A DNA stretch of 64,000 nt from Alphaproteobacteria bacterium (lineage in GTDB: Bacteria > Pseudomonadota > Alphaproteobacteria > Rs-D84 > CACZYB01), in assembly GCA_017938435.1 (NCBI GenBank), contig JAGBBO010000006.1, forward strand, positions 8,945 through 72,944, in the 5' to 3' direction. This document shows positions 6,445 through 47,150 of the stretch, in pieces. The position numbers were made by a program, and so were the translations under genes. The stretch's first letter is position 1. Each line of letters starts with the position of its first letter. Under the pieces are notes generated by a model, which was not told the origin of the DNA, did no database searches, and saw only the letters and a list, made by a program, of their open reading frames with translations.

Positions 6445-8835
6445 ATGCAAAAACAATTAACAAATCAAAAATATTTAAAAGAAAGACTTAACTTTTTTCT
6501 AACTGAAACAACAAATAAAACTCCACGCAATGCATCTGTAAAAGATTGGTATGTTGCATTCGTTAATATGATTAACGACGAACTTGTCGATATGGCGGAT
6601 ATTACCGAACACAATATTCTTAACGGAAAGAATAAAGTTATGGCATATCTTTCCATGGAATATTTGATTGGAAAACTTTCAAATCAAACTCTTTTGAATA
6701 TGGAAGTTAAAGAAAGTTTTAGAAAAGTTTTTGCATCGTTTGGTGTTGATTTAGAAAAGGTTTTAGCATTGGAACCTTCTACACAACTTGGAAATGGTGG
6801 ATTGGGACGACTTGCTGCATGTTTTTTTGATTCACTTGCAACACTTTCTTATCCTGCTTTTGGTTATGGACTTTTGTATAGATGCGGAATTTATAAACAA
6901 CTTATAAAAGATGGAAAACAAGTAGAAGTTCCTGATTTATGGATTGAAAAACAAAATGTTGCCTTGGATAAAAGAAAAGATATCTCTTATGAAATAGGTT
7001 TTGGTGGAAAATTAAAATCTGCATCAAAATTGGAAGATATGGAATGGATTCCAAATGAAAAAATTAAAACTTTTGCAAATGATATTTTGTTTGCTGGATA
7101 TGGTAATGAAAATGTTTTAAGAATACGACTTTGGGAAGCAGAGAGAAAAGATAAATCATCACCTGATTTGAAAAAAAATATTACAAATATAACAGACTTT
7201 TTATACCCACCTGATGGAACAGAAGATGGAAAAAGACTTAGACTTAGACAAGAATATTTACTTACTTCTGCATCAATCCAAGATTTGTTTGAAAGGTTTA
7301 AGAAAACAAAACTTGATATATCAGAAATTGATAAGTTTTTGGCTGTGCAATTAAATGATACACACCCTACTTTGGCGATACCTGAAATAATAAGAATTTT
7401 AATGAAAGATTATAATTTTTCTTATGATGAAGCGTATAAAAAAATGTATAATATTTGCGCATATACAAATCATACTCTTCTTGCAGAAGCATTGGAAAAA
7501 ATTGGTATTGATTTGTTTAAATCAGAACTTCCTTATCACTTTGCAATAATAGAGAAAATAAATTCTGATTTTATGGAAATAGCAAGACAAACAGTGGCGG
7601 ATTTTAAACTAAATAATCTTGAAATAGTAAATTACAAATATGGATATATTAACTGTGGAAATCTTTGTATCGTCGCTACACACAAAGTAAATGGTGTTGC
7701 CGCACTTCATTCGAAACTTTTGAAAAGAAAAGAATTTCCATTGTTTAATGAACTTTTTCCAAGAAAATTTATAAATGAAACAAATGGTATAACTCAACGA
7801 AAGTGGCTTTTGGAAACAAATCCAAAACTTTCAAATTTAATTACCAAAAATATTGGTGATGAATGGATTACAAATTTGCCTCATCTTAGAAAACTTTTGA
7901 AATATAAAAATGATTCAAATTTTTTGGATAAATGGCAAAAGGTTAAGTATGAAAATAAATTGGATTTAATGAATCTTATAAAAGATGATTTAGGTTTAAA
8001 ACTTTCACCTGATTTTATGGTAGATTCACAAATAAAGCGTATGCATGAATACAAAAGGCAATTCCTTAATATTCTTCAAGTAATTGATAGATATAACAGA
8101 ATTGTTGATGGTGATATAGATGGTCTTCAACCTAAAATATATGTATTTGCAGGAAAGGCTCATCCAAACTATACCGTTGGAAAGGAGATAATTACCCTTA
8201 TCAATGATGTTGCAAAAGTTGTCAATAATGATAAACGCTGTAAAGACTTGCTTAAGGTTGTATTCATACCTAATTATAACATTGATAAAGCACAAATTAT
8301 AATTTCAGCAACCGAACTTAGTGAACAAATTTCAACAGCAGGAAAAGAAGCAAGTGGAACTGGAAATATGAAATTTACACTTAACGGTGCATTGACTATT
8401 GGAACTTTGGATGGTGCAAATGTTGAAATAAAAAATAAAGTTGGTAGAAAAAATATTTTCATATTTGGTCTTACTGCAAGAAAAGTTTACAACATAAAAG
8501 AACGAGGTTATGATGCACAAAATTTGTTTAATAAAAACCCAAGAATTCAAAGAATTATTCAACAAATTTTAACCGGTGCATTTTCAAATGGTGATACCGA
8601 AAGATACAAAAATTTGATGACTGCATTTTTCAATCACAATGATGAATATATGCTTCTTGCTGATTTCAATTCTTATGTAAAAACACAACTTGAAATTGAC
8701 AAGGCATACGAAAATCAAAAACTTTGGTGGAAAAAATCTGTTATAAATACTGCTAATTCTGGATTTTTCTCATCCGATAGGACAATAAAAAGTTATGCCA
8801 AAGATATTTGGAAAATTAAGGAAATAAAAGAGTAA
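6445..8835 (+). CDS. glgP: Glycogen/maltodextrin phosphorylase (GT35, PLP-dependent)
   Basis: Pyridoxal-phosphate lysine motif EASGTGNMKFTLNGALTIGTLDGANVEI. 796 aa. Upstream extended -10 (TGcTATACT) and GAGAGGGG ribosome-binding site. Confidence 0.9.
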   Translation: MQKQLTNQKYLKERLNFFLTETTNKTPRNASVKDWYVAFVNMINDELVDMADITEHNILNGKNKVMAYLSMEYLIGKLSNQTLLNMEVKESFRKVFASFGVDLEKVLALEPSTQLGNGGLGRLAACFFDSLATLSYPAFGYGLLYRCGIYKQLIKDGKQVEVPDLWIEKQNVALDKRKDISYEIGFGGKLKSASKLEDMEWIPNEKIKTFANDILFAGYGNENVLRIRLWEAERKDKSSPDLKKNITNITDFLYPPDGTEDGKRLRLRQEYLLTSASIQDLFERFKKTKLDISEIDKFLAVQLNDTHPTLAIPEIIRILMKDYNFSYDEAYKKMYNICAYTNHTLLAEALEKIGIDLFKSELPYHFAIIEKINSDFMEIARQTVADFKLNNLEIVNYKYGYINCGNLCIVATHKVNGVAALHSKLLKRKEFPLFNELFPRKFINETNGITQRKWLLETNPKLSNLITKNIGDEWITNLPHLRKLLKYKNDSNFLDKWQKVKYENKLDLMNLIKDDLGLKLSPDFMVDSQIKRMHEYKRQFLNILQVIDRYNRIVDGDIDGLQPKIYVFAGKAHPNYTVGKEIITLINDVAKVVNNDKRCKDLLKVVFIPNYNIDKAQIIISATELSEQISTAGKEASGTGNMKFTLNGALTIGTLDGANVEIKNKVGRKNIFIFGLTARKVYNIKERGYDAQNLFNKNPRIQRIIQQILTGAFSNGDTERYKNLMTAFFNHNDEYMLLADFNSYVKTQLEIDKAYENQKLWWKKSVINTANSGFFSSDRTIKSYAKDIWKIKEIKE

Positions 8836-8836
8836 A

Positions 8837-10150
8837 ATGAAAACAATAAATACTATTTTTGCACTTAGTTCAGCGTATGGTAAAGCTGGGGTTTCGGTTT
8901 TTCGAATCTCTGGGGAAAGTTCGTATGAAATACTTTCAACACTTTCAAATGGTAAAAAATTTCAACCTAATGTAATGAAATTTACAAATATTTATCACCC
9001 TAAAACTGGTATTTTACTTGATAGTTGTATGGCTGTATTTTTTAAAGGTCCTGCATCATATACTGGTGAAGATACTGTTGAACTTTACACACATGGAAGT
9101 ATTGCCGTTATTGATAGTATTTATGATGCCCTTTCACAATTTAAAAATGCACGACTTGCGGAAAAAGGAGAATTTACTAAAAAGGCATTTTTAAATAATA
9201 AACTTGATTTAACACAAGTAGAGGCGGTTGCTGATTTGATAGATGCAGAAACAGAATCACAACGAAAACTTGCACTTTCAAATACAAATGGTAATGCGTC
9301 AAAACTTTATAATTCATGGCGTGAAAGATTGGTAAAAATTCTTGCTTGGTGTGAGGCGTCGATTGATTTTTCTGATGATGAAATGCCAAAAGATGTAGTT
9401 CAAAAAAATGATAAAGATTTACAAAATTTAATTACTGAAATTGAAAAACATATAGAAACAGCAAATTCTGCACAGCTTATAAAACAAGGATTAAAGGTTG
9501 CGATTATTGGAAAACCAAATGTTGGAAAATCTTCGATATTTAATAAAATCATCGGTGAAAACAAAGCTATTGTTTCAAATATAGCCGGAACTACACGAGA
9601 TATTGTCGATGCAAGTTTGGATATTGATGGATTTAAGGTAAATATTTCCGATACGGCTGGACTTAATGAAAAAACAAACGACAGAATTGAAAAAAAAGGT
9701 ATAAAAAAAGCGATTGATACTGCAAAGAAAGCTGATATCAAAATTTATATGATTGATGGTATCCGTTCATTTAATGAAAATATGGTTGATGATGACACCA
9801 TTGTTTTATTTAACAAGATTGATAAAAAACAAGTTGCCAATATGCCAAAAAATATAATTCCTATTTCTGTGAAAAGTGGAGAAAATTGGAATAAGTTTTG
9901 GAATATTTTTACAAAAAAAATAAAATCAAAAATGCAAAATTCTGCGGATGTGACATTAACTCAACAAAGATATAAAAATGCCTTAAATAATTGTATTGAG
10001 TTTTTAAGAATGGCTATCAAAGAACAAGAAATAGATTTGAAGGCTGAAAATCTTAGATTGGCAAGTGATGAGATAGGAAGCATTACTGGAAAAATTTATT
10101 TCAATGAACTTTTGGATAAAATATTTTCATCTTTTTGTTTAGGAAAATAA
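8837..10150 (+). CDS. mnmE: tRNA modification GTPase MnmE (TrmE)
   Basis: G domain GKPNVGKSSIFN...DTAG and C-terminal ...CLGK tail (the CxGK motif of MnmE). Start is 2 nt after the glgP stop. Confidence 0.9.
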   Translation: MKTINTIFALSSAYGKAGVSVFRISGESSYEILSTLSNGKKFQPNVMKFTNIYHPKTGILLDSCMAVFFKGPASYTGEDTVELYTHGSIAVIDSIYDALSQFKNARLAEKGEFTKKAFLNNKLDLTQVEAVADLIDAETESQRKLALSNTNGNASKLYNSWRERLVKILAWCEASIDFSDDEMPKDVVQKNDKDLQNLITEIEKHIETANSAQLIKQGLKVAIIGKPNVGKSSIFNKIIGENKAIVSNIAGTTRDIVDASLDIDGFKVNISDTAGLNEKTNDRIEKKGIKKAIDTAKKADIKIYMIDGIRSFNENMVDDDTIVLFNKIDKKQVANMPKNIIPISVKSGENWNKFWNIFTKKIKSKMQNSADVTLTQQRYKNALNNCIEFLRMAIKEQEIDLKAENLRLASDEIGSITGKIYFNELLDKIFSSFCLGK

Positions 10151-16138: not shown

Positions 16139-17860
16139 ATGTTTAAATCACGACAAAATAAAAAGCGAAAATTAGTATCTATTATTGTTCCTGCATACAA
16201 CTGTGCGAAAAGTATATCTAAAACTTTGGACAGTTTGCTTGCACAAACATATAAAAATATTGAAATAGTTTGTATAAATGATGGTTCAAAAGATTCAACA
16301 TTTTCTATCCTTTATGATTACAAAAAAAGTGATAAAAGGGTCAAAATTTATAATAACAAACAAAATATGGGAATTGCATATACAAGAAACCGTGGCGTAG
16401 AACTTGCTCATGGCGACTATATTATGTGGTGTGATGCTGATGATTGGTATGAAAAAAATATGGTCGAAGAAATGGTTATTCCAATGGAAATGGACTATAT
16501 CGACTTTGCGATGTGTGAAACAAATGTCGTGCATGATGAAAATTTAACAGAACGACTTTTGCTTGAAAATTTTAAATTTATTATTCAAATTCCAGACAAT
16601 GAATTACAATATGTATCATACAAAACTTTTTTGGAAATGTCTTGTGTCCTTTGGAACAAAATTTTCAGAAAAAGTATTATTGATAAATATAAAATAAGGT
16701 GTGCCAATACAAAATATGCCGAAGATGAAAATTTCCTTTTTAAATATTTGGCTATGTCGAAACATTATTATTGTGTTCATGAAAAACTTTATAACTATTT
16801 AAGAAATGAAAGCGGAATTACAGGTGGAAGACTTGCTAAAAAAAGTAGCGACACCCTTTCTGCTATTGAAGATGTAGAAGATTTTATACACAAATATAAA
16901 ATAAAAGATTATTACAATATTGCAGAAAATATTTCCAATAATAAAAAGGAATATTATGCAACTTTGTTAGATAAATCTATGAATCTAGAAGTTCTTGGAT
17001 TGAATAGTTTAGTAAAAAATATTGAAACTAGTTTACCAAAAGATTTTCATATATTTTATGCTGTAGATAATAGTTGTATTGAACCTTTTATTGTATCAAT
17101 AACTTCTGTTGTAAATAATGCAAATAATAATGAAGTTTTACATTTTCATATTATATATCGTGAACTTGATAATATAAAAATATTGAAAAATGAACTTTCA
17201 TTTAAAAAACATACTGTGGAATTTATTCAACTTTCGAAAAAACAAATTTCAAGATTAGGCGATTTTAAAAATGATATTTCAACATATAAATATTTCATAC
17301 CTGAAATTGCTAATGAATTGGATAAATGTCTTTATTTGGATTGTGATACAGTGGTTTTATCATCTCTTGATGAGCTATATAAAACAAAACTTTTGAAATC
17401 GTATATGGCAGTGGTTGAATCTGCTATAGATAGTGAGAAAAAATCTGAAAAAGTTAATTTGTTAAATATTCCAAACTATTTTGATTGTGGTGTTATTCTT
17501 ATGAATCTTAAATTGATACGAGAAGACGACCTTGCAAACAAATGGATTGTTGCAAGAAAAAATATTTACAAATATTTAGAAAACCCTGATTGCGATGTAG
17601 TAAATCTTATTGTAAATAACATATTTACTATGTTGAAACCTCAATATAATCTTCAAACTGAAATTTTTGAAAATCCAAAACCATTTTGGTGTTATACAAC
17701 AGAAGAAAAAGAATTTGCAAAAAATAATCCTGTAATTATTCATTATTCCGGAAAAAATAAACCTTGGAATTCTGTTTCATCACATTTATGGAAGGATATT
17801 TATTTTAAATATTTAAAATTGGCACCGAAAAAACACTTATGCTATTGGAAAAATGTATAA
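16139..17860 (+). CDS. Bifunctional glycosyltransferase: N-terminal GT2 (GT-A, SpsA-like) plus C-terminal GT8 (LgtC/RfaJ-like)
   Basis: GT2: SIIVPAYN...CINDGSKD...YIMWCDADD. GT8: LDCDTVV (DxD), YFDCGVILMNL, DCDVVN, IHYSGKNKPW. Paralog of 32315-34162. Confidence 0.8.
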   Translation: MFKSRQNKKRKLVSIIVPAYNCAKSISKTLDSLLAQTYKNIEIVCINDGSKDSTFSILYDYKKSDKRVKIYNNKQNMGIAYTRNRGVELAHGDYIMWCDADDWYEKNMVEEMVIPMEMDYIDFAMCETNVVHDENLTERLLLENFKFIIQIPDNELQYVSYKTFLEMSCVLWNKIFRKSIIDKYKIRCANTKYAEDENFLFKYLAMSKHYYCVHEKLYNYLRNESGITGGRLAKKSSDTLSAIEDVEDFIHKYKIKDYYNIAENISNNKKEYYATLLDKSMNLEVLGLNSLVKNIETSLPKDFHIFYAVDNSCIEPFIVSITSVVNNANNNEVLHFHIIYRELDNIKILKNELSFKKHTVEFIQLSKKQISRLGDFKNDISTYKYFIPEIANELDKCLYLDCDTVVLSSLDELYKTKLLKSYMAVVESAIDSEKKSEKVNLLNIPNYFDCGVILMNLKLIREDDLANKWIVARKNIYKYLENPDCDVVNLIVNNIFTMLKPQYNLQTEIFENPKPFWCYTTEEKEFAKNNPVIIHYSGKNKPWNSVSSHLWKDIYFKYLKLAPKKHLCYWKNV

Positions 17861-19082: not shown

Positions 19083-22034
19083 TTAATACCCTTCCTTTAT
19101 CAAATCAAGAATTGTTTCCTGATCAGTATATGGAATATTTTTTGTGCCAAATGTGACATAGTCTTCATGCCCTTTTCCAGCAACCAAAATAACATCGTCA
19201 GGTTTTGAAATTTCCATTGCCTTTTTAATAGCATCACGACGACCAGTTTTTACCTCTATCGCATTAGGGCAATGTTTCAAAATTTCATCCCTTATTTTTT
19301 GTGGATCTTCACATCTTGGCGAATCATCAGTTAATATAGGAATATCGGCATATTTATTTGCAATAGTGCCAAGTTCAAAACGACGAGTATTTGCTTCGTA
19401 AATATCACCACAAGTGCTAAATACATTTATAATTCGACCATTTTCCTTTAACATAGGGCGTATAGTTTTAAGAGTATTTTCCAAAGCTTCTCCCTTATAC
19501 GCAAAATCGACATAGATACTTGCCCCTGATTTCGTTTTTCCCATATATTCAAGACGACCAAGTGCATTTCTAACATTTCCAAGGAGTGGAATTACCCTTT
19601 CCCAATCAGGTGTTGTTGCCGCAACCATACCCAATGCACACATAAGATTGTTAAGTTGGAATGAACCAAGAATTTTTAAATCCAAATGGTATTTTTTACC
19701 AAACAATTCCACATCTGCAATTTGTCCTTCCAAACTGGTTTGTTGAGATAAAATTTTAAGTTCAGTTCCGTTTCGTCCGTATGAAAATACCCTGACGCCT
19801 CGATTATCACAAATTTGTTTTAAATAATCGTATTCTGGAACATCTGCATTTAAAACAGCAGTCCCTGTAATATCAAGATTTTCACGGAAAAGTTTTGATT
19901 TAGATTTTAAATAAGAATCATAACTTCCATAAAATTCAAGATGATCAGTTCCAAGGTTTGAAAAACCTGCGGCTGAAATTTTTATATTTTCCATACGAAG
20001 TTGATCAAGTCCATGGCTTGATAATTCAATCGCACCATGTTCAACACCTTTTTCCTTAAAATATTTCAAAAATTTGTATGCTTCACCATTACCAGGTGTT
20101 GTATGATCGGCATCACTAAACTTTACAATTTCCTTTTTACTGTAAACATTTTCCACAATCATACCTATTGTGCCGATACTTATTGTTGGGAATGAAAGCA
20201 ATCCCCAAATTTGTCTTGTAAAATCGACAATAGATGATTTTCCACTGGTTCCAGTAATTGCACAAATAACTTCGGGTTGCTTTTTATCATAGAAAGTAAA
20301 TACCAAATCAGCCAAAGCCTTTCTTGGATTTTCGGTTCTAACTATGAAAATATTTTTTTCCTTTATCAAAGACAAAGTTTTTTCATCAAATTCGTATGAT
20401 GGTTCAACGACAATAGCTTTTGCTCCTTTTTGAATAGCATCATATGAATAATTAGCACCATTTTGTGCAAATCCTTTTATACCAACAAAAATACTTCCAT
20501 CGACAATAGTTTTGGAATCACATGAAACAAGATGAATTGGTGTATCGGTCGCACCATTACATTCGTATCCTGCTTCGGAAAGAAGTTTATTTAGCGGTTT
20601 TGAAGGTAAGGCAAGTTTGTTTCTAATAAACTCTTTATCCTTTTCATACATAGTTCCACAAATTATAATTGAATCCCAATCGCGTGATGTATCAATTATT
20701 TCATTGATAGCTTCGTAACGATTTGGAATTACCCTAGCCTTTGGGCAATATTTAAGCAATGTTGAACGAATATTTTCAGGATTTTCAGTTCTTGGATTAT
20801 CATCTACAATTACAACTGTATCTGCATACTCATTTAAAACTTTACCCATTTCAATACGACGAATTTCTGGTCTATCTCCACTGCAACCAGCAATGCAAAT
20901 AAGATTATGTTTTACATGCGGTCTGAACTCGGTCAAAAGTTTTTTAAGCCCGTCACCATTATGTCCGAAATCAACAAATATTTTTGCCCCATTAGGTGTA
21001 GTTGCAACATATTCAATACGACCTTTTTCATTTTTTATATCAGAAACTTTTGAAAGTATTTTTTCCCAATCTTTATAAGATGAAATAAACATTCCAAGTG
21101 CACACATAAAATTAAATACTTGGAACTTGGTAACAAGGTTTAATGTCATATCATAAGTTTTTCCAAATATTGATAATTTTACTTGTTGTTTATCATCGAC
21201 TATTTCATATTTTTCAAGTCTGATATCGGATTGTTGATTTTCACCGTATGTTATAACTTTTATTCCCCGAGATTCACAAACATCAACAACTTTTTGTCCT
21301 TTTGCATCATCTATGTTTATTGTTGCAGTGCCATCGGAATCAAGAAGTTCAGAAAATAGACGAAGTTTTGCATTAAAGTATTCTTCGACCGTTTTATGAT
21401 AATCCAAATGATCGTTTGAAATATTTGTAAAACCAGCTGATTTTATTTTTACACTATCGGCACGATGTTGTTCAATACCATGACTGGAAGTTTCTATGGC
21501 TACATTTGTAACACCAGAAGAAGCAAGATTATCTAAATTTTTATGCAAATCAATAGCATCTGGTGTTGTTAAAGTTTTTCCACCTACACCATCAGGAGTA
21601 TGAATACCAACTGTTCCAATAGATGCAGATTTAAGATCAATAAATTCCCACATCTGACGAATAAAGTTTACAACTGAACTTTTTCCATTTGTTCCTGTTA
21701 CTGCACAAATAAATTCTGGTTGATTAGGGTAAAAATTACTTGCAATAATAGATTCAACTAAACGAATATTATCTACAAATATAAATGGAATATGTTGATA
21801 TTTTTTAATATCTATATAATCTTTGTTTTCTTTATTAGTAAGGATAGCAACAGCACCCAAATTTATTGCATCATCAATGAAATCAGCACCATTAACTTTT
21901 GTTCCTTTTACTGCAATAAAAAGACTACCTTTATTAACTTTTGATGAATTATTTTCAACAGAGGTTATATCTAAATCCAAATTTTTATTTTCTATTTCAT
22001 AAGAAATATTATTTAATAATTCTGAAAGTAACAT
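19083..22034 (-). CDS. murE: Tandem Mur-ligase fusion protein, 983 aa: MurE-like N-half (DNPR motif) and MurE/MurF-like C-half (DSPR motif)
   Basis: Two complete Mur ligase modules, each with a P-loop (TGTNGKSS / TGTSGKSS), an SSHG motif (ETSSHGIEQHR / ELSSHGLDQLR), a DHLD/DHLE motif and a C-terminal DDNPRTENP / DDSPRCEDP motif. Confidence 0.8.
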   Translation of the reverse strand: MLLSELLNNISYEIENKNLDLDITSVENNSSKVNKGSLFIAVKGTKVNGADFIDDAINLGAVAILTNKENKDYIDIKKYQHIPFIFVDNIRLVESIIASNFYPNQPEFICAVTGTNGKSSVVNFIRQMWEFIDLKSASIGTVGIHTPDGVGGKTLTTPDAIDLHKNLDNLASSGVTNVAIETSSHGIEQHRADSVKIKSAGFTNISNDHLDYHKTVEEYFNAKLRLFSELLDSDGTATINIDDAKGQKVVDVCESRGIKVITYGENQQSDIRLEKYEIVDDKQQVKLSIFGKTYDMTLNLVTKFQVFNFMCALGMFISSYKDWEKILSKVSDIKNEKGRIEYVATTPNGAKIFVDFGHNGDGLKKLLTEFRPHVKHNLICIAGCSGDRPEIRRIEMGKVLNEYADTVVIVDDNPRTENPENIRSTLLKYCPKARVIPNRYEAINEIIDTSRDWDSIIICGTMYEKDKEFIRNKLALPSKPLNKLLSEAGYECNGATDTPIHLVSCDSKTIVDGSIFVGIKGFAQNGANYSYDAIQKGAKAIVVEPSYEFDEKTLSLIKEKNIFIVRTENPRKALADLVFTFYDKKQPEVICAITGTSGKSSIVDFTRQIWGLLSFPTISIGTIGMIVENVYSKKEIVKFSDADHTTPGNGEAYKFLKYFKEKGVEHGAIELSSHGLDQLRMENIKISAAGFSNLGTDHLEFYGSYDSYLKSKSKLFRENLDITGTAVLNADVPEYDYLKQICDNRGVRVFSYGRNGTELKILSQQTSLEGQIADVELFGKKYHLDLKILGSFQLNNLMCALGMVAATTPDWERVIPLLGNVRNALGRLEYMGKTKSGASIYVDFAYKGEALENTLKTIRPMLKENGRIINVFSTCGDIYEANTRRFELGTIANKYADIPILTDDSPRCEDPQKIRDEILKHCPNAIEVKTGRRDAIKKAMEISKPDDVILVAGKGHEDYVTFGTKNIPYTDQETILDLIKEGY

Positions 22035-23360: not shown

Positions 23361-23395
23361 AAAATCCCCGTTTTGAATTTCGGGGATTTTTATTT
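23361..23395. terminator. Bidirectional terminator (aaaatccccg-ttttgaattt-cggggatttt)
   Basis: GC-clamped hairpin flanked by A-run and T-run between convergent alr and ctp. Confidence 0.75.
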
Positions 23396-24826
23396 TATTT
23401 TTTAGAAGGCTGTTTAGTATTTATAGCAGGTTGTTTTGATGGCTTTTTTACTTCTGGTTTTTTAACTGGTTTCACAGAAGAAAATCTTTCACCATAAATT
23501 GCCAAACCCTTTACCATATCAACAGCACGATTAAGTTGATAATCGTTTTTATCGCGTTCTTCTTCAATCTTTTCACGCTCTGCCTTTGCATCTTTTTTAA
23601 TGATTGATTTTGTATCATTTTTAAGAGCATTAGTCAAAGTTTCCTCAGAGAACATTCTATCTTCTTTTACTTCTTCAATTTTTGCACGATTGACTTCGAC
23701 ATCAGGTTCAATACCATCAGCTTGGATTGAACGACCACTTGGAGTATAATATCTTGCAGTAGTAATTTTAAGAGCTGTATCCCCAATAGGAATCAATGTT
23801 TGAACAGAACCTTTACCATAAGATTTTGTTCCAATTAAAACTGCACGGCGATGATCTTGCAATGCTCCAGCAACAATTTCCGCAGCCGATGCAGAAGCTC
23901 CATTTATAATCACAACCAATGGTTTATTATCCAATATATCCCCTTCTGATGCAAAGAAAACACGGCTGGCATTTTCTTGGCGTGACATAATAGAAACAAT
24001 TTCACCCTCAGATAAAAAGGCATCTGAAATCTTAACTGCTTGATCAAGAAGTCCGCCTGTATTATTTCGTAAATCAAGAACGAAACCAATGACCTTTGGA
24101 TTTTCTGATTTTATTTTTTTTATCGCCTTTATCATATCATCATAGGAATTTTCATTAAATGTAGAAAGACGAATATAACCAACAGAATTGTCAGCCTTCA
24201 TCTTTGATTTAACCGGTTCCGTGCGAATAATATCACGGGTCACAACAATATCAAGAGGTTCAGAATTTTCGCGGAAAATTTTAAGTTTTACTTTTGTCCC
24301 TGGTTTACCCTTCATACGCTTAATTGCCTCTTGTAATGATAAACCTTGAACTTGGACATCATCAATATGAGTGATTAAATCCCCTGCTTCGACACCAGCC
24401 TTAAAAGCAGGACTATCATCAAGTGGAGAAATAACTTTTATAACACCTTTATCCATTGTGACCTCAATACCAAGACCGCCAAACGAACCAGATGTTTGTT
24501 CATTCATAGAATTAAAATCTTCTTCATTTAAAAAACTTGAATGAGGGTCAAGTTTGGAAAGCATTCCATCTATGGCTCCTTCTATCAACTTTTTATTATC
24601 GACATCATCAACATAGCGAGTTTTTGTTATTTCAAATGCACGACCAAAAAGCTCAAGCATTTCGTAAACATCTGAATCCTTTTTAGTTGATACTTTTTTT
24701 TCATTTTTCGATGCTGCACCTGTCAATTTTGATGATGAAATTTCATAAGAAACAATAGAGGCTATAAAAAATACAAATGCCAATGTTGTTAATAATTTTG
24801 TAAATGAAGAATGTTTTTTAGCCATA
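23395..24826 (-). CDS. ctpA: Carboxy-terminal processing protease (S41) with PDZ domain. Start chosen at the internal ATG (MAKKHSS...) preceded by AGGAG
   Basis: S41 motifs (...GGLGIEV... PDZ region; ...NNTGGLLDQAVKISD...; ...SASAAEIVAGALQD...). Signal-anchor N-terminus. Ribosome-binding site AGGAG 8 nt upstream of ATG at 24826. Confidence 0.85.
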
Positions 24827-30606: not shown

Positions 30607-30680
30607 AAAAATATAAAAAAAACTTTACAAATTTTTTTCTGTTTGATATCATACTGGTGTTGAGAAATTGGGGGGGCGCT

Positions 30681-31085
30681 ATGAATATCTTTCGAAATAT
30701 TTTTATTTTAGTATTCGCTGTTTTGTGGTCTTCTGTTTCTTATTCGGCTGATAGAGCTGCGATTGAATCTGCATTATCTAAATACTGTATAGGTTGTAGA
30801 GTAAATGCCGATGATGAACAGGTTCCAGTCTATACTCCAAGTAAGACAGATAAGCCAACAATGTGTGGTTGTGATACATCTTCTGGATATGTTTATAATA
30901 CAACAAAGAGAATCTGTAAACTTTGTGAAAACGGATCTGTTGCGACTACATTTGCTGTGGATTGCCAACCTATTGTTTGCCCAAGAGGAACTTATAGAGC
31001 GGAGGTTGCAAAATGGAATCAAAATTGCCCAAGAGGTTCATATCAAGGAATTTTAATAAATCAAAATACAACATATATTAAATAG
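30681..31085 (+). CDS. Secreted cysteine-rich protein with GCC2/GCC3 (ephrin-receptor-like) CxxCPxG[ST]Y repeats. Start placed at ATG 30681, after the G7 ribosome-binding site
   Basis: Signal peptide MNIFRNIFILVFAVLWSSVSYSA. Repeats CQPIVCPRGTY and CPRGSY, plus CGCDTSSGYVY. G7 run at 30670-30676, 4 nt before the ATG. Confidence 0.6.
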   Translation: MNIFRNIFILVFAVLWSSVSYSADRAAIESALSKYCIGCRVNADDEQVPVYTPSKTDKPTMCGCDTSSGYVYNTTKRICKLCENGSVATTFAVDCQPIVCPRGTYRAEVAKWNQNCPRGSYQGILINQNTTYIK

Positions 31086-31096
31086 TGGGGTTCATT

Positions 31097-31849
31097 ATGA
31101 AGATAAAATTACTTAAATTGTTAGATAAAATTTTAAAAATGTTTGCATTTATTGGATTGTTTTCTTTTAAAACATCAACTAATGCTCAAACTGCATATCA
31201 ATGTTTACCATGTCCAGAAGGATATACGACTTCGTCTGCTGGTGCGACTTCTAGTTCTAGTTGTGTTCCTGTTAGACAAGCAACTGGCGATTTTGTGAAG
31301 ACTTGCACTAATGCAAATTGCACAGGAACGCTTACAAGGGGTTGGTATAGAATCACTTTGAATACAGCAAATGGTTCTGCTGGTGCTGGTGTTGCTGCTG
31401 TTGGAAATAGTAAAAGTTGTTGTCATACATACAATAATACTTGTATGGCATACAACGAAGTTGCTGGTTGTGTAGCAAGAAATGGTGGTGCTGGTGGTAA
31501 AGGATTAACAAAATCTTATGTGATTTATTTGTCAGAAACTGCTTCTTATTCTTACACATACAATAGTGGTGCGCCAAAGATTGTTATTTCAAATAGCAAG
31601 GATGGAACAAGGACTTTCCAACTTTCTGCTGCGGGAAATGGAACAAACGCATCAAGATCATCGAAATCGGTATCTAACTCTTCAACATATCCTGCTTGCA
31701 CTAAAACTACTTGGACAAGTGCTGCTGGAACAAATGGAGCTGCTTCGACTGTTAGAATCGAAAGTGGTTTGATTGGAAGAGATGCTTCTAGTTCTGCTAT
31801 TGATGGAACAACATCTGGAACTGGTGTAAAAATTACAAAACTTTCTTAA
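31097..31849 (+). CDS. Secreted Ser/Thr/Gly/Ala-rich protein with an N-terminal CxxCPxGY cysteine motif. Start at ATG 31097, after a GGGG ribosome-binding site
   Basis: Signal peptide MKIKLLKLLDKILKMFAFIGLFSF...A. Motif YQCLPCPEGYTTSS...CVP. Low-complexity S/T/G/A/N-rich body. 11 nt after the upstream gene. Confidence 0.55.
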   Translation: MKIKLLKLLDKILKMFAFIGLFSFKTSTNAQTAYQCLPCPEGYTTSSAGATSSSSCVPVRQATGDFVKTCTNANCTGTLTRGWYRITLNTANGSAGAGVAAVGNSKSCCHTYNNTCMAYNEVAGCVARNGGAGGKGLTKSYVIYLSETASYSYTYNSGAPKIVISNSKDGTRTFQLSAAGNGTNASRSSKSVSNSSTYPACTKTTWTSAAGTNGAASTVRIESGLIGRDASSSAIDGTTSGTGVKITKLS

Positions 31850-31958
31850 TATAAAAATTAAACTAAAAAATGAAAAAGAAAGTATTATTTACTTTCTTTT
31901 TTTATTTTGCTATGGTAAAATTTGTAAATAAAATTATGAAGGTTAGGAAAATTTATAA

Positions 31959-32318
31959 ATGGCAAAAGAAAATGAAGAAATGATTATAATTCCAGTTGGC
32001 CTTAATTATGGAAAATGTATTACCTATGATGATTTACAAGAAGCTGGTTTTTATAACACTTTGTCCGATATTGATGAGCATATGCGTGATTGTTTGAAAC
32101 GTGCCGATGAGATAAAGGACGCTATTGAAATGGCTGAAAAGGAACGCTATTTTTCCGTATCTGATAGAAATAAGGATTACACTGGTTTGGAATTAAAGTT
32201 CGAAAAATTAAGAAATGAACTCGCTTCGTTTCATGATTTTATTATGCAATTTGGCGATAATGAAGTATGGAATTCTGTTGTAAGAAATTTTCCTGATGAA
32301 AATAAGGGTGAAAAATGA
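31959..32318 (+). CDS. Hypothetical protein, 119 aa, acidic. Its stop overlaps the start of the downstream glycosyltransferase (ATGA)
   Basis: ORF with a 4-nt overlap to the GT2+GT8 gene. No family recognised. Confidence 0.4.
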   Translation: MAKENEEMIIIPVGLNYGKCITYDDLQEAGFYNTLSDIDEHMRDCLKRADEIKDAIEMAEKERYFSVSDRNKDYTGLELKFEKLRNELASFHDFIMQFGDNEVWNSVVRNFPDENKGEK

Positions 32319-34162
32319 AAGATTTAATTTCTGTTATTGTTTTGGTTTATAACCGTGAAAAAGTTGTTGGACGATGTTTGGAACACCTTATCAATCAGTC
32401 ATACAAAAATCTTGAAATTATTTGTGTAAATGATGGTTCAAAGGATAAATCTTTAGAAATTTTACAAGAGTATGCAAAAAAAGATAGTCGTATAAAAATA
32501 ATAAACAATCCTAAAAATATGGGCATTGCTTATTCTCGAAATGCTGGTCTTGATGCTGCAACTGCGGAATACATTATGTGGTGTGATAGTGATGATTGGT
32601 ATGATAGGCATATGTGCAAAACAATGCTTAAAGCCATTACACAAAATAATGTAGATTATGCTGAATGTCCTGCAAAAATTGTATATGAAAATGAAAATCT
32701 TGGCGTTAGAAAAAATTGGAATCAACAACGTGATTGGGAGTTAAGGTGGACTGGTAAAAAGAAGGTTGATTTGGCTGTTTGCAGACATACTGGCTGTTTT
32801 TTATGGAATAAAATTTTCAAAAAATCATTTATAAATAAGTATGGTTTAAGAATTCCAAATATCAACACTCATGAAGATACTATTTTCGTGTCTATTTATA
32901 TTATGCTTTCAAAAAATGCGTATCTTGTGAAGGAAAAACTTTACTATTATGTAATTCATTCTGGTTCGACTATTGATAAAGTATATGAAGAAAAACGAGG
33001 ATTTACTGAGTTTGAAGAAGTTGAATATTTTTCAAAGTGGGCTGGTGGATTTATTAAGGAACATGGACTTACACAAATATATCCTATGTATAATGAACTG
33101 TTATATACAAAGATATTTAATTTTCTACTGAATGCAAGCATACTTACAAATAATATTCAAATAATCTTAGGTAAAAAACTTGAAGATTTAAAAAAAAAAT
33201 TTGAACAGTTGAACGAAATTGAAGTAAAAGCTCTTTTAAAAAAAGAGGATGAAATCAAGTTACAAAAGATAGCAGAAAGAAATAAAATTATAGAAAAAGA
33301 AAATAAAATTCGAGAAGTTAAATTCGAACCTATGGATATATTTTTTACTGCTGATGATAAGTATGCTGAACATTTGGCAACTACTTTGGTTTCGATACTT
33401 TTGAATGCAAATTATTCTGATGAATTTAATTTTCATATTTTAGATGGTGGCATTTCGTGGCTAAACAAACGAAAAATCCTTAAACTAAAAAATATAAAAT
33501 CATGTAATATTGAATTTTTAAAAGTTGATACAAGTCTTTTTAAAAATTTTCCATTGGAAATTTCTTATATGTCCCTTGCAACATATTATAAATACCTTAT
33601 TCCAAGAATAAAAAGAAAAATCAAACGTGCACTTTATTTGGATTGCGATTTGATTGTAAGGGATTCACTTCATAATTTTTATTATCAAGATTTTAAAAAC
33701 AAGGCGGTTGTTGTTTGCGATGATGCGTATTGGGATTCTGATTTTGCGAAAAAATATAAAATCAAAAATTATTTCAATGCTGGTGTTATGTTGATTGATT
33801 GCGTTAAATGGCGTGCAAAAAAGTATATTGATGAACTTTTTAAACAAACAAAACTTTTGAAAGATGATATAAAACACGAAGATCAAGATGTGTTAAATTA
33901 TGTCCTTAAAAATGACAAGTTATTGGAAAGCCAAAGATATAATCTTCAAGTATATTCATCTATTACTCATAAATTCAAAGGATTGAAAAAAGATACAATA
34001 CTTTCCATTACTGCAAATCCTGCGATTGTGCATTATAATACAAAAGAAAAGCCATGGACTGGACATTCAATACACCCTTACACTATGGAATATTTTATTT
34101 ACAAAAATAAAACCCCGTTTAAAAACAGGGTTAAGAAAGATTTAGAAAAAGTCATTGGATAA
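32315..34162 (+). CDS. Bifunctional glycosyltransferase: N-terminal GT2 plus C-terminal GT8, joined by a coiled-coil linker
   Basis: GT2: SVIVLVYN...CVNDGSKD...YIMWCDSDD. GT8: LDCDLIV (DxD), YFNAGVMLID, DQDVLN, VHYNTKEKPW. Paralog of 16139-17860. Confidence 0.8.
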   Translation: MKDLISVIVLVYNREKVVGRCLEHLINQSYKNLEIICVNDGSKDKSLEILQEYAKKDSRIKIINNPKNMGIAYSRNAGLDAATAEYIMWCDSDDWYDRHMCKTMLKAITQNNVDYAECPAKIVYENENLGVRKNWNQQRDWELRWTGKKKVDLAVCRHTGCFLWNKIFKKSFINKYGLRIPNINTHEDTIFVSIYIMLSKNAYLVKEKLYYYVIHSGSTIDKVYEEKRGFTEFEEVEYFSKWAGGFIKEHGLTQIYPMYNELLYTKIFNFLLNASILTNNIQIILGKKLEDLKKKFEQLNEIEVKALLKKEDEIKLQKIAERNKIIEKENKIREVKFEPMDIFFTADDKYAEHLATTLVSILLNANYSDEFNFHILDGGISWLNKRKILKLKNIKSCNIEFLKVDTSLFKNFPLEISYMSLATYYKYLIPRIKRKIKRALYLDCDLIVRDSLHNFYYQDFKNKAVVVCDDAYWDSDFAKKYKIKNYFNAGVMLIDCVKWRAKKYIDELFKQTKLLKDDIKHEDQDVLNYVLKNDKLLESQRYNLQVYSSITHKFKGLKKDTILSITANPAIVHYNTKEKPWTGHSIHPYTMEYFIYKNKTPFKNRVKKDLEKVIG

Positions 34163-35751: not shown

Positions 35752-36462
35752 ATGAAAAAAATAATATTTACATTGTTCATTTTAATTATATCATTTACTG
35801 CAATAGCAAAGGAATACAATGAAAACGAAACTAAGGATTGTTCCAAAAATTCAGTTCTTATGTTTTGCGATTTAAATGGAAATACCATTACAGGATTTAT
35901 AAAAAAATATTACAAAAATAGCAATTTAAAAGGAGAAATTCCTCTTAAGGATGGTAAAATTGATGGTATAGGTAAATTATATTACGAAAACGGAAATTTA
36001 GAAAAAGAAATGAATTATAAAAATGGTAAACGTGAAGGTTCAACCAAAACATATTATGAAAATGGGAACTTAGAACAAGAAATAAATTATAAAGATGATA
36101 AACCTGAAGGTTTACTTAAGATGTATTCTGAAAATGGAAACTTAGAACAAGAAATAAATTATAAAGATGGTAAAATGAATTTGAACAAAGAATATTTTGA
36201 TAATGGAAATTTAAAGGTAGAAATAAATTATAAAGATGACAAAATTACATCATCCAAAATGTATTTTGAAGGAGGAAGTTTAAGGTTAGAGATGAATCAT
36301 GAAGGTTTAAAAACATATTATTGGAATGGAGATCTAGAACAAGAAGTTTATTTTAAAGATGGTAAAGCTATATCAGGATATATGTATGATGTTTCTGGAA
36401 AAAAGATAGAAATGACCAATGCTCATTTACACAATATGATGAAAAATATAAAAATAAATTAG
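35752..36462 (+). CDS. Secreted MORN-variant (MORN_2 / YwqK-like) repeat protein
   Basis: Signal peptide MKKIIFTLFILIISFTAIA. At least 6 repeats of YYENGNLEqEiNYKDGKxEG. Confidence 0.7.
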   Translation: MKKIIFTLFILIISFTAIAKEYNENETKDCSKNSVLMFCDLNGNTITGFIKKYYKNSNLKGEIPLKDGKIDGIGKLYYENGNLEKEMNYKNGKREGSTKTYYENGNLEQEINYKDDKPEGLLKMYSENGNLEQEINYKDGKMNLNKEYFDNGNLKVEINYKDDKITSSKMYFEGGSLRLEMNHEGLKTYYWNGDLEQEVYFKDGKAISGYMYDVSGKKIEMTNAHLHNMMKNIKIN

Positions 36463-36682: not shown

Positions 36683-38134
36683 TTATTTTTCGCTTGATGG
36701 TGGGATTGTTGGAGGAGTATCATTTCTCCACTTTACATGGTGTTTGCAATAATATATTTCATATTTATTTCTTAATAAGGCAACCAAATTAAATGGTTCT
36801 GTTTTTACTTGTATATCAAGTTGTTGACCTTTTTTAACTTTAATTTTATATAAAAAATTAAAATCTTTTGATACACAAAGTGTGCGCCGTAAAACATCTT
36901 GGCCATTAACTTTTATTTTAGAAAAATAAGAATTATTCCCAAAGGTATTAAACACACATGTCACAAAGCCATCATCTTCAATCTTTAATTTTATTTCTGC
37001 ATTTTTTAAAAAACCTAAAAGTTCGACACCTTCACCATATTCTGTTCTAAGCCAAGATTGGTTTCGTGAAAATTTAACGCCAGAACATTCCTTTATTTCA
37101 ATTTTATTGTGTTTATTAAAAGAATCAGTCAAATCATTTGCACATAAAACAGCAACCTGAGCTTTATCTATTTTTATATCGCCTATACCTATTTTATTTA
37201 ACATATATTTATTATATCTTTTTCCAAAATTTTGGCTTGCGAGAAAATAGTAAATAGCCCTTTGACAATGATATTTTAAATATTCCACCCCATCCTTTGA
37301 AAGGTTATGCTTTTTTGCATAAAATTGTAAAAATTTAAAAATAATAAACAAACAATTTACAATATTTTTAACATTCTTACTTACACTATTTGGGGTATCG
37401 TGATTTTGCAATAATGGTTTGAAAATCATTGAAAATTTAAGACCTTTATGCAAAAGAATTTGGAACAAAAATAATGTATCATCAGGACCATTTAGTTTTG
37501 TAAAAAATCTTAAATGCAAATTATCAATTACTGATTTTTTTATTGCTAAATTCCAAATAACACCTTCGGTTTCATAAAGATCGAAATTTTTTCCATCAGA
37601 AACAAATCTTTCACCATAAGTAGTAGGAAGAGTCACAATCATCAGATTTTCTGTAAAATCACGTCTATATTGAAATACCTCATTTTCAAAAGATAAAAAA
37701 TGGTAATTTGTTTTCTTTATCGCATCTTTTATATATTCAAACATTACGATATCAGAATCATCTTCTATAATACGACCATAAACTGTGCTACAAGTATCAG
37801 GCATATATTCATCATCACTATCAAGAAACATTATATATTTTCCAGTAGCATACTGCATACCAGTATTTCTTGCCTTTGCAACACCACCATTTTCTTGATG
37901 AATAACCTTTATTCTATCATCTTTTCTTGCAAATTCATAAAGAACTTCTAAAGAATTATCCTTGGATCCATCATCAACGCAAATTATTTCTATATCACGA
38001 AATATTTGTGCGCGTAAACTTTGAATACTTCTATCAACAAGTTTACCTCTGTTATAGACTGGCATAATAATGGAAAAAATGGCATCTAAAATCCCCGTGT
38101 TACAATTAAATATAATTCCGATTAAAGATAACAA
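36683..38134 (-). CDS. Glycosyltransferase family 2 protein (GT-A fold) with an extended C-terminal domain
   Basis: IIMPVYNRGKL...CVDDGSKDNS...YIMFLDSDDEY (the GT2 signatures, including DxD). Confidence 0.75.
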   Translation of the reverse strand: MLSLIGIIFNCNTGILDAIFSIIMPVYNRGKLVDRSIQSLRAQIFRDIEIICVDDGSKDNSLEVLYEFARKDDRIKVIHQENGGVAKARNTGMQYATGKYIMFLDSDDEYMPDTCSTVYGRIIEDDSDIVMFEYIKDAIKKTNYHFLSFENEVFQYRRDFTENLMIVTLPTTYGERFVSDGKNFDLYETEGVIWNLAIKKSVIDNLHLRFFTKLNGPDDTLFLFQILLHKGLKFSMIFKPLLQNHDTPNSVSKNVKNIVNCLFIIFKFLQFYAKKHNLSKDGVEYLKYHCQRAIYYFLASQNFGKRYNKYMLNKIGIGDIKIDKAQVAVLCANDLTDSFNKHNKIEIKECSGVKFSRNQSWLRTEYGEGVELLGFLKNAEIKLKIEDDGFVTCVFNTFGNNSYFSKIKVNGQDVLRRTLCVSKDFNFLYKIKVKKGQQLDIQVKTEPFNLVALLRNKYEIYYCKHHVKWRNDTPPTIPPSSEK

Positions 38135-39854: not shown

Positions 39855-39890
39855 AAAAAAAGCACTTTAAATAGTGCTTTTATTTTTTCC
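39855..39890. terminator. Bidirectional terminator (aaagcact-ttaaat-agtgcttt + T-run) between convergent xseB and virD4
   Basis: Perfect 8-bp stem with flanking A- and T-runs. Confidence 0.7.
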
Positions 39891-41985
39891 TTAACCAATC
39901 AGGCACAGCCGGTGCAGGTGGAATTTGTGATTTTGCAAGAAGTTTTGGATCCTTGTAATACCTTGGGCTTTCTGCCTCAATAGGGTATCGAGGATAACCT
40001 TGCATAATAACGATTTGTTTTTCCGGAGAAAGTGACATAATTTTACTTGTGCTATATAATGACTTTTTTCCAACGTTAATATCAAAATCTCGTTTAAATG
40101 CATTAAGATTGGTTCCGTTTTTATATTTTGTTTCAGCAAAATTCATATCACCCATAATCTTTGAAAAACGAGCTGCTGTATTTTCATTATTTTGTGTAAG
40201 CAAAATTTTTGCCGCAGTTGTTGACATCAAGGTTTCAACATGTTCACGACCATATCCTGCCTCTATCTGACCCAAATCCTGGGCAATTAAAAGATATGAA
40301 ACTTTTTGACCACGACCAACCGCAGGTCCATCAATAACGGCATTTAATTTTGGCATTTGAGGAAACTCGTCAAGTACAAAAAGTGTAGGACATGGTCCGG
40401 CTTTAACTCCACCACCTAAATCTTTTCCTGGTGGTGTAGAAATAAGATAATTTGACATCAATTCAACAAAAACACCAGTAATAACATTTAATGCACGGGC
40501 ATCTGTTTGATTTACTGATAAATAAATAGTCACAGGTTTCATTTTACCATCAGTTGGATCAACCATACCACGCAAATCTTTGAAAGAAAAATCACTATGT
40601 GAAGTTCTTTGGCGGACGGCTTGGTTTTTAAAAATACCAATACCAGTTAAACCAGTGGAAAGAATAGATCCTCGTTCCTTATCTGGCGTATTGGCAAGTT
40701 GTGTCATTTCCAAAACAGCACGATGAGAATATCCATAACGACGCGCTTCCATAACTGCATTTTCAAGCATTTCTTTCATAGGATCAGCAAGTGCAGCCAT
40801 TTGATCGCCCTGCTCCTTTCGTTGTCTTATATCCTCAGAAATATGGACCTGAGCTTCACTCATCCAATCAAGAAGCATTGGAATATTTGCTTCGTGTCCG
40901 ACCCATTCCTTTGGAATATCAGCCCATGTTCCAACAGGAACATAATTATCTTTATTTATTTTTCCCTCACGAAGAAGTGTTAATGCACCCATTGCATAAC
41001 TGTCATTCATAGAAAGATAATATTGTTCCAAACTTGCCGCATCACGCGCATTAAATTCTCCATTAGAAAGTCGTGTATAAAAATAATCACTAGCAGTTGC
41101 GCGTTCACATTTGGAAACTATGTAATGCATAAAACCAGAAAGTGCATTTCTACCAGTTTTTGACCAGTGTGGATCAGCCGAAGATCCAGCAGGATCTTGA
41201 ACAAAAACATTAACCATACTATCGATATACATATCCCTATCTGGACCTTGGGGAGGAATGGTGCCTGGTGATAATGGGTTCCATGATGGATAATATTCAC
41301 CCTTTTCAGGATTATCTTCTTTACCCCAATTCATAATAAACACAGGACCAATTTTTGCACGATAACCACTTGTGATATAACAAAGTTCTGGCTTAGGGTC
41401 ATTGACAATCATACTTACCGTATCACATTCAAAAATTGTTGGAATAACTATACCAACAGTTTTACCAGTTCCAGGAGGAGCACACGCAAGAACAGATAAT
41501 GTTTCTCCTAATTTTAAAAAACGCTTTTTAAAACGACCAAGAACTATAATAAATCCATCCCAAACTTTCATTTTTTTCATAATTTTTTCATCAGCATTTT
41601 TTGAATATGCCGCAGGGGTAGATGTGACATCATACGGATTAGAATTATTTATTACCACAAGTGTAGGCGGAATTGCCATAAGTGGAATTGCAGGAATAAT
41701 TGTTGATGTATGCCCACTTACAAAAGCCATAATCCATTCATAATAAGCCCATAAGACATAGAACCCAGCGGTATTAAAAATATTTCTAAAATATCGTTGC
41801 ATTTTTGCAGAATGGAAAACTGCCATATCGAAATCATGATTTACCCAAAAAGAAATTGGAAAAATCATTATCAAAACTCCCCACAAAAGAAGTCCTGATA
41901 TAATATATGCAAACATAAGCCATCGGGCAGCCTTTTGATGTTCGCCTTCATACTTATCTTCAAATACTTTTTTAAGAAATACCAT
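39880..41985 (-). CDS. virD4: Type IV secretion system coupling protein VirD4/TraG family. Start placed at internal ATG MVFLKK...
   Basis: Two N-terminal transmembrane segments, Walker A LACAPPGTGKTVGIVIPTI (compare APTRSGKGVGVVIPT in VirD4), Walker B LFVLDEFPQMPKL. Confidence 0.85.
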   Translation of the reverse strand: MVFLKKVFEDKYEGEHQKAARWLMFAYIISGLLLWGVLIMIFPISFWVNHDFDMAVFHSAKMQRYFRNIFNTAGFYVLWAYYEWIMAFVSGHTSTIIPAIPLMAIPPTLVVINNSNPYDVTSTPAAYSKNADEKIMKKMKVWDGFIIVLGRFKKRFLKLGETLSVLACAPPGTGKTVGIVIPTIFECDTVSMIVNDPKPELCYITSGYRAKIGPVFIMNWGKEDNPEKGEYYPSWNPLSPGTIPPQGPDRDMYIDSMVNVFVQDPAGSSADPHWSKTGRNALSGFMHYIVSKCERATASDYFYTRLSNGEFNARDAASLEQYYLSMNDSYAMGALTLLREGKINKDNYVPVGTWADIPKEWVGHEANIPMLLDWMSEAQVHISEDIRQRKEQGDQMAALADPMKEMLENAVMEARRYGYSHRAVLEMTQLANTPDKERGSILSTGLTGIGIFKNQAVRQRTSHSDFSFKDLRGMVDPTDGKMKPVTIYLSVNQTDARALNVITGVFVELMSNYLISTPPGKDLGGGVKAGPCPTLFVLDEFPQMPKLNAVIDGPAVGRGQKVSYLLIAQDLGQIEAGYGREHVETLMSTTAAKILLTQNNENTAARFSKIMGDMNFAETKYKNGTNLNAFKRDFDINVGKKSLYSTSKIMSLSPEKQIVIMQGYPRYPIEAESPRYYKDPKLLAKSQIPPAPAVPDWLRKK

Positions 41986-42045
41986 TTTCCCTATCCCTAT
42001 AGTAATAGTATAGCACATTTTTTTTATAAGGTAAAGTGGCAAAAT

Positions 42046-47107: not shown

Positions 47108-47150
47108 AAATGAAAACAAAAATCCCCCATGGAAACCGACACGGGGGATT
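47108..47150 (-). terminator. Rho-independent terminator for rlpA (aatccccc-14-nt loop-gggggatt, T-rich tail on the minus strand)
   Basis: C5/G5 clamp hairpin, 20 nt downstream of the rlpA stop. Confidence 0.6.

Follow-up and report, generated by a model that had tools for sequence, protein, structure and literature searches.

A homopolymeric guanine tract placed just before the start codon of a gene for a secreted protein raises the question of whether it serves as an ordinary ribosome-binding site or as a repeat whose changes in length switch the expression of that gene. We addressed this question for a locus located in a 64,000-nt stretch of DNA (hereafter the window) from an uncultured member of the Alphaproteobacteria. 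GGGGGGG occupies positions 30670-30676 on the + strand and is followed by CGCT at 30677-30680 and by the ATG at 30681, the order of sequence at the locus being TTGAGAAATT, GGGGGGG, CGCT, ATG. Both the tract and a predicted promoter are held in the gap of 74 nt that separates the polA stop codon (30606) from the ORF of a 134-aa protein. For comparison among strains, 34 further distinct contigs were retrieved, each encoding a close variant of this protein, which gives 35 sequences with the window; 17 further contigs carrying the window's exact protein were left out of the tract comparison. The locus comprises the following features.

30624..30652, + strand: putative sigma-70-like promoter, TTTACA-17 nt-TATCAT with an extended -10 TG (10/12 matches to the consensus)
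30653..30669, + strand: short 5' leader ahead of the tract, SNP-dense among strains (30655, 30659, 30661)
30670..30676, + strand: G7 homopolymer, predicted Shine-Dalgarno element; G6, G8 or TGGGAGG in other strains
30677..30680, + strand: 4-nt spacer CGCT from the tract to the start codon, invariant in 35/35 sequences
30681..31085, + strand: gene for the 134-aa secreted Cys-rich protein, with a signal peptide, an LxKYC motif, nine invariant Cys and CPxG[YF] repeats
31097..31849, + strand: gene for a secreted protein of 250 aa, mostly beta, with CxxCPEGY as N-terminal motif and its own GGGG Shine-Dalgarno sequence
31959..32318, + strand: gene for a 119-aa conserved cytoplasmic-looking protein, whose stop overlaps the start of the glycosyltransferase gene
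32315..34162, + strand: gene for a 615-aa two-domain GT2 + GT8 glycosyltransferase, last gene of the syntenic cluster

A preliminary description of this DNA had reported a G7 at 30670-30676, 4 nt upstream of an ATG in a genome of about 30% GC, and this is what we see, the GC content of the window being 30.9%. The G7 is the sole G or C homopolymer of at least 7 nt in the 64 kb; the runners-up are one C6 (35166-35171) and eight runs of 5. Counting both strands of 64 kb, the expected number of G/C runs of at least 7 is 0.23 (0.11+0.12) under an iid model and 0.77 (0.35+0.43) under a first-order Markov model, and the probability of at least one such run per window is ~0.2 to 0.54. These expectations make the G7 uncommon yet within chance. 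The earlier statement that 'well under one' run should occur per 64 kb therefore holds with the iid model and fails with the Markov model. No enrichment of long G/C runs was detected in the 64-kb window, where 10 runs of at least 5 were observed versus 9.5 (iid) to 21 (Markov-1) expected, and several runs of at least 7 would be expected by chance in a genome of ~1 Mb. Rather than its rarity, it is the position of the G7 and the conservation of a G-run in orthologous leaders that set it apart from chance.

Two of these ten runs are supplied by a CCCCC...GGGGG inverted repeat at 47124-47147, which lies between convergent genes, has A/T runs on both sides and is probably a bidirectional intrinsic terminator.

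An expectation of 0.23-0.77 runs per window lends itself to a reading in which the tract would be a G-rich string that arose by chance and has no role in itself, initiation occurring by other means or at an upstream start that would place the tract inside the ORF as a frameshift switch. In the G7 allele of the window, the upstream frame is indeed open back to a TTG at 30588. However, the frame upstream of 30681 contains stop codons in the G6 and G8 alleles and in both sister species that carry the orthologous genes, and an in-ORF switch starting at TTG 30588 was rejected because this frame is open in the G7 allele only. The ATG at 30681 is the true start, since the signal peptide and the family alignment begin there, and an upstream extension would have to cross the promoter and the polA stop codon. 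Moreover, G-runs are conserved ahead of the orthologous ATGs, and no second SD-like motif is present between the promoter and the ATG at 30681. We regard a chance string, with or without an upstream start, as extremely improbable.

Four independent lines of sequence evidence indicate that the tract is the Shine-Dalgarno (SD) element of the 134-aa gene, in agreement with the preliminary description, which had assigned the G7 to the SD region. First, the duplex formed by G7 and the anti-SD has a predicted energy of -10.5 kcal/mol, the second strongest among 48 genes, when the canonical anti-SD CCUCC is assumed; the window has no 16S gene, and the assumption is backed by GGAG/GGAGG motifs and by the AGGGGG of the prfB site. 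The genes of the window carry GGAG, GGAGG or AGGAG as SD. Second, TGGGAGG, which contains the canonical GGAGG, is found at the same position in two assemblies from different studies. Third, the orthologous leaders of two sister species read ACGGGGG-10 nt-ATG and ACGGGG-9 nt-ATG after a conserved promoter, so that a G5 and a G4 precede the ATG in species whose polA is 79% and 73% identical, respectively. Finally, the +1 frameshift site of prfB in the same genome has AGGGGG as internal SD, which indicates that the ribosome of this organism uses G-runs as SD.

Judged by its complementarity to the 16S anti-SD, its position just before the start codon and its conservation among orthologues, the tract is functionally a Shine-Dalgarno site, and it shares with canonical sites the character of a G-rich element complementary to the anti-SD. 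It differs from them in being a pure homopolymer of 6-8 G, which offers several pairing registers, in being polymorphic in length among strains, and in having a spacer of 4 nt versus 5-8 nt at 16/17 SDs of the window. Among the 17 genes with a canonical SD, the aligned spacing is 5 in eight genes, 6 in three, 7 in three, 8 in two and 0 in one, and in none of them is it 4; the gene with a spacing of 0 probably has a mis-called start. With the CGCT spacer, the 3'-most register of the tract has a spacing of 4, to which G6 adds 5, G7 adds 5-6 and G8 adds 5-7, so the registers of G7 span 4-6 nt. The predicted energies of the anti-SD duplex are -9.3 kcal/mol for G6, -10.5 for G7, -11.0 for G8 and -10.2 for TGGGAGG. 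Because all four alleles are strong predicted SDs with registers of 4-7 nt, no OFF state would be expected.

Upstream of the tract, the promoter core ACTTTAC...TTTGnTATAnT is kept in two sister species, and the -10 hexamer reads TATCAT or TATTAT among strains. From the position of this hexamer, transcription probably starts within 30653..30669. With the promoter at 30624-30652, the tract would sit in a leader of ~25 nt. A scan of JGI metagenomes with the conserved 27-mer of the promoter returned one contig, which was already in our set. In the 35 sequences, the -35 hexamer, the promoter spacer and the upstream A/T runs are invariant. Substitutions affect six positions in the 74 nt of intergenic DNA, and four of these fall within 12 nt (30650-30661), namely at 30650 in the -10 hexamer (C/T) and then at 30655, 30659 and 30661, near the predicted transcription start.

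Three other ways in which a G-run might act in such a leader were considered and rejected. Reiterative transcription of the pyrG type would call for a tract at the transcription start, and this one begins 17 nt past the -10 hexamer, which is too far. By inspection, the leader of ~25 nt has one long G-run only, which rules against an intramolecular G-quadruplex. A leader structure that depends on tract length was also discarded, as the minimum-free-energy folds of the G4-G8 variants are near-identical (-9.1 to -9.5 kcal/mol); the accessibility of the tract in these predicted folds is 0.42-0.52.

Tract length does vary among strains. In the 35 rumen metagenome sequences we found G6 in 23, G7 in eight (window included), G8 in two and TGGGAGG in two, these lengths being those of consensus assemblies, where minority length variants within a population are invisible, and many contigs being of low coverage (2-3x where the contig name gives a value). 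The preliminary description had pointed to heterogeneity of the type G6/G7/G8 among strains as the thing to look for, and to an invariant G7 across isolates as the outcome that would speak against a switch; the heterogeneity is present, and G7 is thus not invariant. An assembly or sequencing artefact was rejected as its source, since the same alleles come out of MEGAHIT, SPAdes, Logan and MAG assemblies made in different studies, and they co-segregate with flanking SNPs. A general proneness of the region to indels was likewise rejected: among seven homopolymers in a 2.7-kb alignment, the G tract is the only one that varies in length, the A6, A7, A8, T7, A6 and T7 runs (six A/T runs of 6-8 nt) never varying. 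The other indel of this alignment is a singleton 10-bp insertion in polA.

This insertion is carried by one contig, and in several metagenome contigs polA is split into two called genes (polA region of L005, L006 and L014, at an alignment position that corresponds to ~29760 of the window); both probably represent assembly errors or strain-specific frameshifts in an essential-looking gene.

By Fitch parsimony on a neighbour-joining tree, the tract requires 5 state changes, while ordinary sites average 0.063 steps. At six SNP sites, 4 steps are likewise needed, which indicates recombination, so that the robust minimum is three length alleles plus the interrupted allele. G6, G7 and G8 are all found on one 17-nt flank haplotype. 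Together with the 5 parsimony changes, this shows that the tract is a genuine hot spot of mutation, whose length could be under selection. On the tree, G6 is the state throughout one major clade; the other has G7, apart from one G8 branch and one G6 clade nested within it.

To relate tract state to the divergence of the flanks, we compared pairs of contigs sharing at least 1 kb. The tract state was the same in 64/64 pairs with flanks diverged by 0.3% or less (35 identical, 21 at <=0.1% and 8 at <=0.3%), although these pairs are not all independent, as several contigs may represent the same samples processed with different assembly pipelines. The closest pair of contigs that differs at the tract is 0.5% diverged. 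Accordingly, the tract is roughly 30-80 times as mutable as nucleotide sites are on average. For classic contingency loci, the mutability expected exceeds this figure by several orders of magnitude.

The preliminary description had gone further and proposed a possible translational phase-variation switch, with slipped-strand mispairing that changes the length and spacing of the SD. In a contingency locus of this kind, such mispairing would be fast and reversible, and would switch or strongly modulate the translation of the secreted protein within clonal populations. Such a locus would be consistent with the length polymorphism G6/G7/G8, with the tract being the sole variable homopolymer of the region with up to 5 parsimony changes, with secreted products of elevated piN/piS, as is typical of contingency-gene products, and with a glycosyltransferase gene downstream. 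Nevertheless, none of the 64 pairs with flanks diverged by up to 0.3% differs at the tract. The lengths are specific to clades, whereas fast switching would leave them decoupled from phylogeny or gathered at one equilibrium mode. No allele is predicted to lack an SD, the majority allele G6 lies under the recognised thresholds, and none of the contigs compared breaks off at the tract, as could happen with an assembly bubble within a sample. Fast phase variation is thus not supported by the consensus assemblies compared, and we consider a contingency locus unlikely. The locus offers a worked example, drawn from public metagenome assemblies, of the distinction between homopolymer length polymorphism, which is present, and phase variation, which is not evidenced. 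Strain polymorphism alone is insufficient for the latter, for which a tract must vary faster than its flanks.

The comparison with established phase-variable repeats leads in the same direction. In Campylobacter, the in-silico cut-off for poly-G tracts is at least 7, which the G7 of the window reaches, and variability between longitudinal isolates is documented for tracts of at least 8 (PMC6321876); these thresholds may not transfer to the present organism, where G6 accounts for 23/35 sequences and G8 for 2/35. A genome with poly-G contingency loci has numerous such tracts, and their length differs between longitudinal isolates of the same strain (PMC6321876). Neither property was seen here: the 64 pairs of consensus contigs gave no length variation within strains, and the 64-kb window holds one G/C run of at least 7 and one of 6, with no other long G/C tract. 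Like the poly-G/C loci of Campylobacter, Neisseria, Haemophilus and Helicobacter, the tract is a G homopolymer next to a gene of the secreted or surface type and has length alleles that differ by single G's. Those loci differ from it in being mostly in-ORF or promoter repeats, usually of at least 8 G, whereas the present one lies in an SD and is mostly G6. The preliminary description had also called poly-G at an SD a 'classic' switch. The classes recognised in the literature are in-ORF (translational) and promoter (transcriptional) repeats (PMC6321876), and no described example of a repeat switch located in an SD was found among the open-access full texts searched, which leaves the word 'classic' unjustified and further weakens the case for a contingency locus.

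The reading that we favour, and consider probable, is that of a slippage-prone homopolymeric SD which shows a slow, lineage-level length polymorphism with at most a fine-tuning effect. The G-run would be an ordinary but strong SD, homopolymeric by happenstance, in which GGGGG could pair with the CCUCC core of the anti-SD through one G-U wobble. It would drive translation of the 134-aa gene, the first in a cluster that codes for two fast-evolving secreted proteins and perhaps takes in the glycosyltransferase. Replication slippage at the homopolymer would add or remove single G's over strain-level time, giving G6, G7 and G8, and in one lineage the tract would have been interrupted to give the canonical GGGAGG. 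These changes would be slow, on the timescale of ~0.5% nucleotide divergence, so that each lineage would have a fixed length. As every allele would be a competent SD, the efficiency of initiation would at most shift mildly and by degrees, longer tracts providing more pairing registers within the 5-8 nt spacing that this genome prefers. A modest, graded rise in initiation with tract length is plausible, the size of the effect being deduced from pairing energies and registers that are themselves predicted.

A stronger version would see in the tract a selected translational rheostat, where single-G slippage in the homopolymeric SD heritably tunes two diversifying secreted proteins and perhaps the glycosyltransferase, and which might act together with an sRNA. 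The number of registers within the optimal spacing would then be one for G6, two for G7 and three for G8, and an sRNA that binds G-runs might also act on the G6 leader of the neighbouring secreted-protein gene. We hold such a rheostat to be rather unlikely. If it were true, repeat-mediated variation of expression would gain a separate class located in the SD, besides the in-ORF and promoter ones. More generally, if tract length tunes translation, a natural ribosome-binding site would double as a mutable repeat, and this in a never-cultured lineage of gut/rumen Alphaproteobacteria.

The neighbouring G6 is the second-longest G run of the window. It is located at 35171-35166 on the minus strand (C6 on the + strand), in the leader of a gene (35138-34182) that encodes a 318-aa secreted Ser/Lys-rich protein with no Pfam match and that is adjacent and convergent to the cluster. 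A promoter-like TAGACA-18-TATGAT lies upstream of this run, which is 27 nt before a TTG start. Neighbouring genes for secreted proteins thus have the two longest G runs of the 64 kb in their leaders, an arrangement that would suit a shared regulator binding G-runs.

Such a regulator has a precedent in Helicobacter pylori. In the tlpB-hp0102 leader, the length of a G-repeat sets a graded control, dependent on the RepG sRNA, of a chemoreceptor and of a co-transcribed GT2 glycosyltransferase; the repeat has 7-14 G in the natural strains named and was engineered to 6-16 G, and its length varies even between isolates from one host (Pernitzsch et al. 2014; 2021, PMC8295292). This is the closest documented analogue of the present tract, with a G-repeat in a leader (the UTR position of ours being deduced from the predicted promoter), a length that varies between strains and a GT2 glycosyltransferase downstream. 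By analogy, the G-repeat might be the target of a trans-acting, RepG-like sRNA with a C/U-rich loop, tract length setting the strength or sign of the control exerted on the secreted proteins and the co-transcribed glycosyltransferase, and the G6 in the adjacent leader would agree with this. The two systems differ in two respects. In H. pylori, the repeat precedes an RBS distinct from it and acts solely by base-pairing with RepG, whereas our tract serves as the SD, 4 nt ahead of the ATG; and the H. pylori repeat varies within hosts, whereas the present tract is stable within strains (64 pairs). No candidate sRNA and no relevant Rfam match were found within the 64-kb window, and its intergenic C-runs of at least 5 are limited to the complement of the G6 and one arm of a terminator stem. 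An sRNA target is thus very unlikely in our view.

Another poly-G located between a transcription start and a start codon is that of uspA1 in Moraxella catarrhalis. In work attributed to Lafontaine et al. in 2001, 9 versus 10 G in the 5' UTR reportedly modulate the expression of this surface protein. That tract, which is longer than the one described here, is said to be separated from the start codon by ~30 nt, to affect the level of transcript and to switch within cultures.

The slow polymorphism of the SD concerns a cluster of genes that is itself of interest. The first product had been announced as a Cys-repeat secreted protein, and this description stands: the protein, of 134 aa, begins with a signal peptide and contains CPxG[YF] repeats and nine Cys that are invariant in the family. 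The exact protein of the window corresponds to MBP3615380.1, from the MAG of an uncultured 'Alphaproteobacteria bacterium', and all its other occurrences are in ruminant gut metagenomes. The family is rare, with 20 representatives among 1.84 billion proteins. The Pfam domain Ephrin_rec_like matches 4/18 members at sub-threshold to weak levels (best E 1.6e-5). The gene for the 250-aa protein begins 11 nt past the end of the 134-aa gene, and no similarity that would make the two proteins paralogues was detected. Their AF2 models are of moderate quality, with mean pLDDT values of 76 for the 134-aa protein and 69 for the 250-aa protein, and a Foldseek search with both gave no PDB fold match with E < 0.09; a TNFR/Eph cysteine-rich domain and an aerolysin-like fold, which appeared only among non-significant top matches, were rejected. 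The 119-aa gene is preceded by a promoter-like site at 31907-31934, and it may thus be transcribed either together with the first two genes or separately from them. In the 615-aa protein, Glycos_transf_2 and Glyco_transf_8 were recognised at 2e-39 and 8.5e-40, respectively.

Within the species, the 134-aa and 250-aa proteins have piN/piS values of 0.46 and 0.70, respectively, compared with 0.07 in polA and 0.06 in the 119-aa protein. Between sister species, identity is 34-40% for these two secreted proteins and 73-79% for polA. Taken together, these values indicate that the two secreted proteins are fast-evolving. The same gene order is found after polA in sister species L035 and L039, where the pair of secreted-protein genes spans 7814-9027 and 7821-9032, respectively, against 30681-31849 in the window. 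In the two closest sister species (L033 and L034, polA 86-88% identical), the cluster is missing after polA and is replaced by a tRNA gene or by cold-shock and methyltransferase genes. The cluster behaves as an accessory, diversifying cassette, and a role of the secreted proteins in host interaction would be a guess. A rare Cys-rich family with high piN/piS, in a cluster present or absent after polA, is probably a more interesting object than the tract itself.

Some other features of the window were noted. A second two-domain GT2 + GT8 glycosyltransferase, paralogous to that of the cluster, is encoded at 16139-17860 (+), and a further GT2 enzyme at 36683-38065 (-), which suggests a sizeable repertoire of surface glycans. 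A MORN-repeat protein is encoded at 35752-36462. At 39880-42018 on the minus strand, a type IV secretion coupling protein of the VirD4/TraG family (T4SS-DNA_transf, TraG-D_C and TrwB_AAD_bind) is found in an otherwise housekeeping neighbourhood. The 983-aa ORF at 19083-22034 (minus strand) contains two full sets of Mur-ligase domains and is an apparent fusion of the MurE-MurF type. A match to Rickettsia sRNA47 (Rp_sR47) in Rfam, with 64.7 bits for a gathering score of 60, covers 23769-24072 on the + strand. It is antisense within the coding region of a CtpA-like gene (Peptidase_S41/PDZ; minus strand, 23395-24825), and conserved coding sequence, instead of an sRNA gene, may account for the match.

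Finally, the prfB gene for release factor 2 extends from 58786 to 57698 on the minus strand, with the frameshift site at 58747-58730 and its G5 at 58744-58740. The +1 site is of the textbook type, ATT AGG GGG TGT CTT TGA C. The ATG of ORF0 overlaps the stop codon of the upstream gene (TAATGG), and the downstream ORF carries the PCRF and RF-1 domains, an arrangement whose start would be mis-called by a simple ORF caller.
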